Shown: piece after piece, positions 23,868 through 26,800 of the stretch
Position numbering within the stretch: the stretch's first letter is position 1
Layout: the number at the start of each line of letters is the position of its first letter
From: Lingula anatina
Lineage: Eukaryota; Animalia; Brachiopoda
Reading direction: 5' to 3'
DNA length: 64,000 bases
Assembly (NCBI GenBank): GCA_051362555.1
Contig: CM120642.1
Span: forward strand, 24,490,001-24,554,000
Position numbers and translations under genes: made by a program
The notes under the pieces: generated by a model
What the model was told of the DNA's origin: nothing
Database searches by the model: none
Seen by the model: the letters and a program-made list of their open reading frames with translations, nothing else

Positions 23868-26800
23868 TTACGGCTGTGGCACTGCCTTTCCCATAAACAC
23901 ACCAGTGGGATTGACGCTGTAAGTAACTACATCACTAGTTGTGTGAACTCCTATTTTGCCCCCATCAAACACTTCTGTAATGAGGTAAGACTTTGCCCCT
24001 GATATTCCCATGTCACTTAACTTGTAGTTCAGCTTTGCAGGTGTGCCGTATACACCATAGTTTACGATGGTGAAGGCGTAGCTTCCAGTTGGCATAACAG
24101 GGCGTGTCCACACTTGAATATCATTGTTCTGAAATAGAGAAGTAATATGCCACCTTTTTAATTTTCAGAAAAAGAAGAGCTCATCTGGCTATTTAAGTAA
24201 AGATAACTTCAAATAATAACATTTAACATATCCTCATAAACGGTCAATTGTTTGCAAACATTTAAAGTGCAGAACTTTTTTCTTTGAAAACTTCTGTCAG
24301 AAACAGAAAGTTAAGTGTCATACATTTAACATAACACCACAAACCCCTACAAATAACACTGTGTGAATGCCCCAAAGTACTCACCTTAATAACTCTCTTC
24401 CCCATTTTTCCCATGGGATCTTGGTTGATAGCTATTACATTCTTATTCTGCAGTATTGCCTTGGACTCAGGTGCTATGTGCCTCAGATCATTCCCCATGA
24501 GCAGCGGGGAAGCCATGATGGCCCACATTGCCATCTGAACCCTCTGCTGGTCATAGCTCAGACCATAATTGCCAATGATTAACTAAAAGTAACAATATAT
24601 GCTTCTGTACATATATACTACAATCATAGACTCTGTCTGAGGTTGAAAACATTTTGCTGACCTTAAACGAGTGATATCAATGAAGGTGCAGCTGAGGAAA
24701 ATAGTACAAAGCTTTATGTTAATGTCAACACTGATGCCACCAGTGTTAAAACTGTCCATGTTTTATTGCAAGTAATTAGGAACATAGTGTATTAATCTAA
24801 ACCGTCTACACTCACGACATCAGTATTACCAATGGATACAAAAATGAATAAGTGAATGGACAGGTAGACTGACAAGCAAAGTAACACACACAAAAAAATA
24901 AATAAATAAATAAATAAATAAATAAATAAATAAATAAATAAATAAATAAATTAATTAAAAAAAAAAAAATATATATATATATATATATATATATATATAA
25001 ACACAAAAGTATACAAAAAAAATCGAACAAAATTCAAGTCAAACATAAACAAACCATATCTGGGTCGTTCCATGCCCCTGGTCCAGCAAACATACTGAAG
25101 TTCCCTTTATCATCTCCGTAAAAATCAATAATCCCCTTCAAACTGTCCCAGGAGTCTTGAATGTCATCGTAATTCCTCCACAAGTTGCATGATTGGGCGA
25201 TGGCTTGATAGTCTGGCTGTATACAAGAGAAAAAAGTGATAACTACTTTACTATTTTAGATGACAATTTTTTTGTGAAAAAAAAAACTGTGGATAAACTT
25301 GCACAATATAAGTACAAGGCAGATTTTGTGCATATATGCCATTTTGGAAAACATCTCCAATACCTTACAACTTTAAAGATAATTTTCTCTCGTTCAGGTG
25401 CAACTCACTGCAATTTTTCACAAATAAAAAATAGTGTTTATAATTCACACTCAAAGTTTATAAATTCCCTATGTTTTAATTTCAATTTTTAGTCAAGAGC
25501 AGTATTATAAATTTTAGCATTTGTTATCATTTCTGTTCACAACATAGTTGAAATGTAACTCCAAAACATTTTTTGAACTTATCAAATGCCTTTATCAAAT
25601 CCAAAAGTTTTTATAGATCTGCACAAACAAAGAGTCACAATCTTAAATTTTCTGTTAATGTACTTGTGAATGTATAGATTGTTTTTTAAATCTCATCATT
25701 GTAAGACATGCTGTACAATTTGAAATACATTGATGTGTGATTACATTTGTTGCTTTCATTTCATACTGATAAGCTAGGTTTTAATTCTTCTGTAATAAAA
25801 TAAAACTAGATACACTTACAGGACTTAAACATACATGTAAACATTTTAAACAAATGTAAAAAAGAAGATTTAAATCCTACTGTATCCAACTTTATTCTTC
25901 TAATATAATCCAATCACATATTTTGCCTAAGTTCTTGGTTAAAATTCAGGTTTTTCTTTTACTGACACAGATCAAAATCAATTTGATCAAATATGCATAT
26001 TACATCACAGATATTTTAAACATGATGACTTAAATAAAGGTATTCATAAAAGGCATCAGTATAATTGGCACAGTCCTTTCTTGCAGCTTACCTCTTTAGT
26101 CTGATAAGCTGGCCATTCACATGAATAAACTATTGGTCTTCCAGTTTGGTTTAAGTAATACCCCATGGCTGGATAGCCTGTTAAAAAGTGAACATTCTGG
26201 ACTCCCTCTACTCTCAAATTTAACTCTCTTCTGGATATGACATGACTGACCTTAAACTGGCCAGAGACCCAAATGTTGGTATGATCATAGAATTACATGG
26301 TCTGCCAATGTACATACAAGTATATGAGCAATTCTCTTCCTTTCCACCCATCTTCCTTGCCCCCACCCCCCACCTCCCCAGGTCTAGCTGCCCCTTTTCA
26401 CCAAACTTCCAAGCTGAGCACTATATATTAAGCAATATACAAGCAATATATTAAGCAATATACAAACCAGTTTTGGTCCTCCTGCTAGATAAGCAGGCCA
26501 GCTACAAGAGTACATAATGGGTCTGTTAGTTCTATTGAGAGCCCTGCCCATCTCTGGATATCCTACAAGAAGGAGAGAGAAAAAATATGCTCTTAGCTTT
26601 TAAACAAAAGAAACAAATTAAAGCAAATTTAATCTGCCTGAGCTCACAAATATACTAAATTTCTTCTCTATTTGGTCAAATGTTTTTGCATTTACTGTAA
26701 AAGTTCCAATTTTTAAAGAAATCAAGCTTAATTTTCTATGCTACTGTGAGCCCAGTTTTCTGCTAGCAGCACTTGCAAAAAAAAAAAAAAAAAAAAAAAA

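Follow-up and report, generated by a model that had tools for sequence, protein, structure and literature searches.

Two alternative active-site loop exons in a GH27 gene of Lingula anatina and a predicted switch between alpha-N-acetylgalactosaminidase and alpha-galactoside preference

Gene structure and the two forms of exon 4

Can a single glycoside hydrolase family 27 (GH27) gene provide both an alpha-N-acetylgalactosaminidase (alpha-NAGAL) and an alpha-galactosidase by choosing between two exons? We asked this of a 64-kb stretch of the Lingula anatina genome (hereafter the window; 64,000 nt of contig CM120642.1), in which a reading made from the sequence alone had proposed two intact paralogous exons, 4a and 4b, in one gene. 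The window contains a minus-strand, 7-exon GH27 gene with its ATG at 31324 and its stop at 23868 (phmmer E 2e-136 to 1ktb and 1e-134 to 1r46):

Coding exon 1: 31161..31324, minus strand; ATG, signal-peptide-like start and active-site Trp37; agrees with RefSeq XP_013416361
Exon 2: 29189..29363, minus strand; 175 nt; Asp82/Asp83
Exon 3: 28245..28419, minus strand; 175 nt; nucleophile Asp160; donor spliced to 4a or 4b
Alternative exon 4a: 26468..26562, minus strand; 95 nt; major form; alpha-NAGAL-like loop Ser192/Ala195 (Ser codon 26503-26501); RNA joints and RefSeq X1
Intron between 4a and 4b: 26178..26467, minus strand; 290 nt; no joint spanning it among 15 of 26 joints listed
Alternative exon 4b: 26092..26177, minus strand; 86 nt; minor form; loop Glu192/Ala195 (Glu codon 26118-26116); RNA joints and RefSeq X2
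Exon 5: 25055..25216, minus strand; 162 nt; Arg and the acid/base Asp; one copy in the window, duplicated in some relatives
Exon 6: 24385..24582, minus strand; 198 nt
Exon 7: 23868..24128, minus strand; ends with the stop codon; C-terminal beta domain

All proposed coordinates of the exon pair were confirmed: 4a and 4b lie between exon 3 and exon 5, are both intact and bounded by AG and GT, and both run from phase 1 to phase 0. The accompanying rule that only one of the two yields a full-length enzyme also held, with products of 409 amino acids (4a) or 406 (4b). Inclusion of both exons leads to a stop within 4b (211 amino acids) and skipping of both to a stop in exon 5 (188 amino acids), these premature stops lying 419 and 307 nt ahead of the last junction, respectively. 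An exon-4 profile built from relatives, with Lingula rows excluded, was run over the six frames of the window and matched exactly two sites, at E values of 3e-20 and 5e-17, far beyond chance, and these are the sites of the two exons; the family profile score is higher for 4b than for 4a. The same profile approach returned no extra copy of exon 4 or exon 5 in the 64 kb. An assembly artefact or allelic duplicate is ruled out by reads that run from a single exon 3 into 4a as well as into 4b, and by the unrelated flanks of the two exons.

Several elements surround these exons. Three copies of a 150-200 nt MITE-like repeat with terminal inverted repeats sit in introns 1-3 (27363-27517, 28552-28749 and 29872-30052), the first of them with hundreds-fold RNA depth on both strands that comes from other copies. 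A second inverted-repeat element (26873-27106), likewise matched by reads of both strands, occupies the intron ahead of 4a. Head-to-head with the GH27 start, across a gap of about 900 nt, a spliced plus-strand gene runs from about 32226 upward; judged by eye, its first exon presumably encodes an OFD1-like N-terminus, and a minus-strand segment in its intron (about 35200-35850) looks by eye like the 3' end of a LINE reverse transcriptase of the CR1/L2 kind.

Comparison of 4a and 4b over 24 aligned codons revealed 17 identical residues, the proportion of differing sites being 0.75 for synonymous and 0.28 for non-synonymous positions (raw proportions, as distinct from a formal dN/dS of 4b). In the 200 nt to the left and to the right of the exons, alignment scores are no higher than those of shuffled sequence (47 and 198 of 200 shuffles reach the score), and the two exons are not mutual nearest neighbors among 42 loop exons, ranking 10 and 30 of 41. 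Of the 18 coding variants listed from the RNA, none of them in 4b, 17 are synonymous (122 further rows lie outside this listing). The pattern is what an old duplication would leave if selection has apparently constrained both exons, and the proposal that the exons are diverged yet intact under selection is consistent with the site proportions and the unrelated flanks.

Both products are already on record in RefSeq. Exon 3 is 100% identical to XP_013416361, annotated as Lingula anatina alpha-NAGAL-like isoform X1; XP_013416361.1 (X1) is the 4a form, and XP_013416363.1 (X2) has 4b joined to exon 5. X1 and X2 are the same sequence apart from exon 4, and the protein encoded in the window differs from them by four residues and one extra C-terminal residue, none of these in exon 4; the 4b peptide is thus unchanged between the window and RefSeq haplotypes. 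The two are automated models that share one name, alpha-N-acetylgalactosaminidase-like, which ignores the loop change. A second Lingula RefSeq locus on another scaffold, XP_013410056.1 (P0123), is 98% identical and recorded in the 4a form only; it is either haplotype redundancy or a recent duplicate. A Glu-type profile gave no Lingula row of any kind in the best 120 of 7937 matches, which is uninformative about a separate GLA-type gene.

The recognition loop and its predicted specificity

PMC5445309 lists 13 active-site residues of chicken NAGAL, and we mapped these onto both isoforms. The isoforms differ at one, Ser192 in 4a versus Glu192 in 4b, Ala195 being common to both; the two catalytic Asp and 11 common pocket residues are present in either form. 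Aligned to 1ktb (chicken NAGAL), 1r46 (human alpha-GAL A) and 3lx9 (an engineered Ser/Ala alpha-GAL A), position 192 is the known specificity site, which NAGAL fills with Ser and alpha-GAL A with Glu, and the Ser/Ala or Glu/Leu loop is described as determining NAGAL or alpha-GAL A specificity (PMC5645117, PMC5478728, PMC5445309). The alignments and the residue map thus support the suggestion that exon 4 carries the residues that read the sugar 2-position. Exon 4a has the Ser192/Ala195 recognition loop of alpha-NAGAL. In 4b, Glu192 matches the Glu of 1r46, but the second loop position is Ala195 rather than Leu, and because of this replacement we do not class 4b as an alpha-GAL A.

In the human enzymes, S188E/A191L and E203S/L206A interconvert alpha-NAGAL and alpha-GAL A (PMC5645117). 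Human NAGAL has reported activities of 1.33 on GalNAc and 0.19 on Gal, the S188E/A191L mutant <0.05 and 0.55 mmol/h/mg, and NAGAL-type enzymes themselves cleave galactosides (PMC5478728). These specificity data concern double mutants only, and 4b has the Glu without the Leu; the available portions of PMC4580623 and of a Schistosoma NAGAL preprint contain nothing on single-residue exchanges or splicing. Going by the human double mutants and by the nematode Ser/Ala enzyme with both activities, we expect the 4a form to act as a NAGAL that also cleaves galactosides to some extent, and 4b to have a range narrowed toward Gal. A substrate switch from 4a to 4b is likely when judged from the same double mutants. 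The idea of a galactosidase-leaning isoform is supported, with the correction that NAGAL types already cleave Gal, so 4b would restrict the range and add no activity.

We consider it probable that exon choice within this one gene places either Ser or Glu opposite the sugar 2-substituent, giving a major alpha-N-acetylgalactosaminidase (4a) and a minor, predicted alpha-galactoside-preferring enzyme that largely excludes GalNAc (4b). Exon 3, with the nucleophile, is spliced to one or the other, and Glu by itself, unaccompanied by the alpha-GAL A Leu, would suffice to crowd out the N-acetyl group. Because the acid is present but the pocket-filling Leu is absent, the Glu/Ala loop could instead retain GalNAc activity or fit another 2-substituent, such as a free amine or a modified sugar, the switch being functional all the same. 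The Glu/Ala combination is indeed unique, occurring in one of 262 distinct loop peptides from 363 proteins, as compared with 111 for Ser/Ala and 49 for Glu/Leu. Yet Glu is the very residue that alpha-GAL A has at this site, and its side chain would presumably encroach on the N-acetyl pocket all the same; we regard this alternative as unlikely.

A structure model of the 4b form (70-row alignment, pLDDT 94) has a (beta/alpha)8 barrel and a C-terminal beta domain and superimposes on NAGAL and alpha-GAL A structures with TM scores of 0.91-0.92; a single-sequence fold reached a pLDDT of only 34.5 and was useless. The Lingula enzyme thus resembles vertebrate NAGA and GLA in fold, in sequence (about 50% identity) and in its catalytic and pocket residues. 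The part of the protein specified by exon 4 comprises a helix of the barrel, a strand and a stretch of surface whose length varies, and beyond residue 192 the two exons show six further differences over 24 aligned residues and a 3-residue length gap. The isoforms might accordingly differ mainly in stability, pH optimum, aglycone (lipid versus peptide) or dimer contacts, through the helix and the variable tail. We hold this to be quite improbable, since the sole active-site difference in Lingula falls on the known specificity residue. With the rest of the protein identical, the preferred reading of a sugar switch comes with a built-in control.

Exon choice in RNA and its possible control

Reads were drawn from four of the nine RNA runs listed for the species (6-26% of each run), and counts refer to 15 of 26 joints listed. 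Both exons are seen spliced in. Exon 3 is joined to 4a (28245>26562) by 109 reads (18, 27, 22 and 42 by run) and to 4b (28245>26177) by 11 (1, 0, 7 and 3, that is, in three of four runs), and 4a is joined to exon 5 (26468>25216) by 91 (14, 33, 18 and 26). In runs X7 and X8 the 3>4a joint appears twice, offset by 1-2 letters; the two were counted together, the shifted one being read as the same joint on another allele. Joints from 4b to exon 5 (26092>25216), from 4a to 4b and from exon 3 to exon 5 are absent from the 15 of 26 listed. Support for the 4b>5 splice comes from RefSeq X2, which contains it, and from read depth, which covers 4b (0.3, 2.5, 5.0 and 1.2 in its bin for the four runs) and is close to zero in the intron behind it (0, 0.1, 0 and 0). 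Alternative use of the two exons is thus borne out by RNA joints and by X1/X2.

The 4b form accounts for 11 of 120 exon-3 joints (9%), with 0-24% by run and 0 of 27 in one of them. As for the earlier proposal of a NAGAL isoform and a galactosidase-leaning isoform from one locus, both forms are spliced, but 4b is only the minor one. Its share is unequal across runs (permutation p 0.009 on reads and 0.014 on distinct starts; small counts), and its use may be regulated. Could 4b be a little-used spare exon or a splicing leak with no distinct job? Its low and in one run zero count, the place of 4b>5 outside the joints listed and the 4a-only record of the second Lingula RefSeq copy would agree with this. 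Against it, 4b is open and outscores 4a on the family profile despite near-saturated synonymous sites and unrelated flanks, its peptide is the same in two haplotypes, it reaches 24% of joints in one run, and parallel cassettes are maintained in two abalone species. We think a spare exon very improbable.

The acceptor of 4a is the stronger (19 of 20 pyrimidines ahead of it, against 12 of 20 for 4b), and the donor of 4b is the more consensus-like (GTAAGC, against GTTTGT for 4a). Exclusivity would arise from competition between these sites, backed by nonsense-mediated decay of transcripts with both exons or neither; the simplest explanation combines competition by site strength with loss of the out-of-frame forms through decay. 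Steric exclusion requires short spacing between exons, and the 290-nt intron is too long for it. Docking-site pairing was rejected as well: of 15 inverted pairs in 25216-28245, none is a convincing common docking site beside both exons, and the longest are parts of repeat elements.

Loop-exon swaps in relatives and comparison with known systems

We compared 179 full-length matches exon by exon and found pairs that differ in exon 4 alone (Haliotis, Patella) or in exons 4 and 5 (Biomphalaria). The relatives are protein models only, and "one gene" rests on isoform names, neighboring accessions, contigs of equal length and identity outside the exon. Seven clusters were picked on hints of exon differences or isoform names, followed by nine further clusters. 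The alternative loops are:

Lineus longissimus: Glu/Leu, Ser/Ala; two exon 5
Haliotis rufescens and H. cracherodii: Ser/Ala, Glu/Gly, Glu/Leu in each
Patella vulgata: Ser/Ser, Glu/Leu, Glu/Val; two exon 5
Aplysia: Glu/Leu, Gln/Gly, Gln/Leu; two exon 5
Biomphalaria: Glu/Leu, Gln/Gly; two exon 5
Mya: Ser/Ala, Ser/Val; isoform names
Clytia: Glu/Ser, Glu/Thr; isoform names, boundaries not exactly exon 4

Lineus, the two Haliotis species and Patella vulgata each combine Ser and Glu alternatives within a single gene model. The alternatives of Aplysia, Biomphalaria, Mya, Clytia and Trinorchestia include no Ser/Glu pairing, so a swapped loop does not in every case amount to a NAGA/GLA switch. Swaps without a Ser/Glu change (Mya, Trinorchestia, Clytia), or with a swap of exon 5 too, are what a role outside sugar recognition would also produce. 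Genes with a Glu/Leu exon repeatedly have a further alternative exon that combines Glu or Gln with a small residue (Glu/Gly in both abalone species, Gln/Gly in Aplysia and Biomphalaria); this recurrence points to a third type of pocket and favors another 2-substituent for the Glu/Ala loop of Lingula. The Glu/Ala, Glu/Gly and Gln/Gly loops separate two residues that were changed only jointly in the human double-mutant data.

Loop variants as isoforms of one gene were absent in seven of the nine further clusters (Mizuhopecten, Mytilus, a second Haliotis family, Ruditapes, one more cluster, Rhodnius and Diadema); the second Haliotis family looks like tandem genes. Some models have two copies in series, of exon 4 in B. 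pfeifferi and the amphipod Trinorchestia and of exon 5 in Elysia and Plakobranchus. Separate Ser-type and Glu-type genes also occur in bivalves and gastropods. Exon 5, with the acid/base Asp, likewise has swapped duplicates in Lineus, Patella, Aplysia, Biomphalaria and sacoglossans, so that versions of exon 4 and exon 5 are combined (P0232, P0221, P0230, P0299, P0301). Two assembled proteins near Capitella, P0112 and P0015, have close constant exons (100/100) and Ser/Ala versus Glu/Leu loops, possibly an annelid cassette case or a recent gene pair.

In a tree of 260 constant-exon columns, with exons 4 and 5 left out and 45 of 83 rows kept, 37 lophotrochozoan-side rows are split at 97/89 from eight outgroup rows that include vertebrate GLA and NAGA; fish GLA and bird and shark NAGA sit opposite the lophotrochozoan genes across this branch. 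With its constant exons placed away from GLA, the gene offers no evidence that 4b is a GLA orthologue. The gastropod cassette genes group together at 88/89, Lingula falls weakly with Owenia, and Lineus with Glu-type mollusc-like genes. The best tree separates the Lingula, Lineus and gastropod cassette genes; forcing them together, with a Lottia row that joined the constrained group after the tree was viewed, costs 42.7 log units (AU p 0.0975). Repeated origin is the better tree, and a single origin is compatible with this p value. A tree of the exon itself (23 columns) is uninformative, the exon being too short to place the descent of 4b. We tentatively suggest that the GH27 genes of invertebrates may carry a swappable active-site cassette, with two to three versions of the loop exon in brachiopods, ribbon worms, gastropods and probably crustaceans (sometimes two acid/base exons and up to five full-length forms per gene). 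The panel would span the NAGA/GLA split and add putative Glu/Ala, Glu/Gly and Gln/Gly pockets for sugars foreign to vertebrate lysosomes. Whole-gene database names (NAGA-like or GLA-like) fail to tell the activity of an isoform.

This kind of exon switch is known. In COQ-2 of helminths, annelids and molluscs, the mutually exclusive paralogous exons 6a and 6e change two near-substrate residues and thereby switch enzyme specificity, and one versus several origins is likewise left undecided (PMC7434440). COQ-2 is a prenyltransferase whose switch was shown by exon knock-outs (PMC7434440), whereas the GH27 case is a glycosidase with a predicted switch, and some GH27 relatives, unlike COQ-2, have three loop exons and two copies of exon 5. 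The vertebrate P450 CYP4F3, in which tissue-specific exon choice alters the substrate, is cited in PMC7434440, where active-site-changing exon switches are termed rare. For GH27, a word-matched literature search, with subscription journals and the supplements of exon surveys mostly outside it, found no description of exon switching, so the instance is new as far as found; the novelty claimed by the sequence-only reading is tempered by both proteins being in RefSeq and by similar swaps in models from other phyla.

Within GH27, GANA-1 of C. elegans is a single invertebrate gene that covers both activities, as proposed here, but GANA-1 achieves this through a single Ser/Ala loop whose specificity is relaxed, with no alternative splicing found there (PMC548690). 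In starfish and squid, two GalNAcases can be told apart biochemically, but their N-termini differ (PMC5445309), and for this reason we take them to be products of separate genes. The Lingula switch sits on the loop that divides the enzymes of Fabry and Schindler disease and would be a natural counterpart of the engineered NAGAL/alpha-GAL interconversion. Vertebrates use two genes, NAGA and GLA, where Lingula has two exons in one gene, with 4b combining Glu with Ala and not with Leu; across animals, exon duplication would thus stand next to gene duplication as a second route to one functional split.
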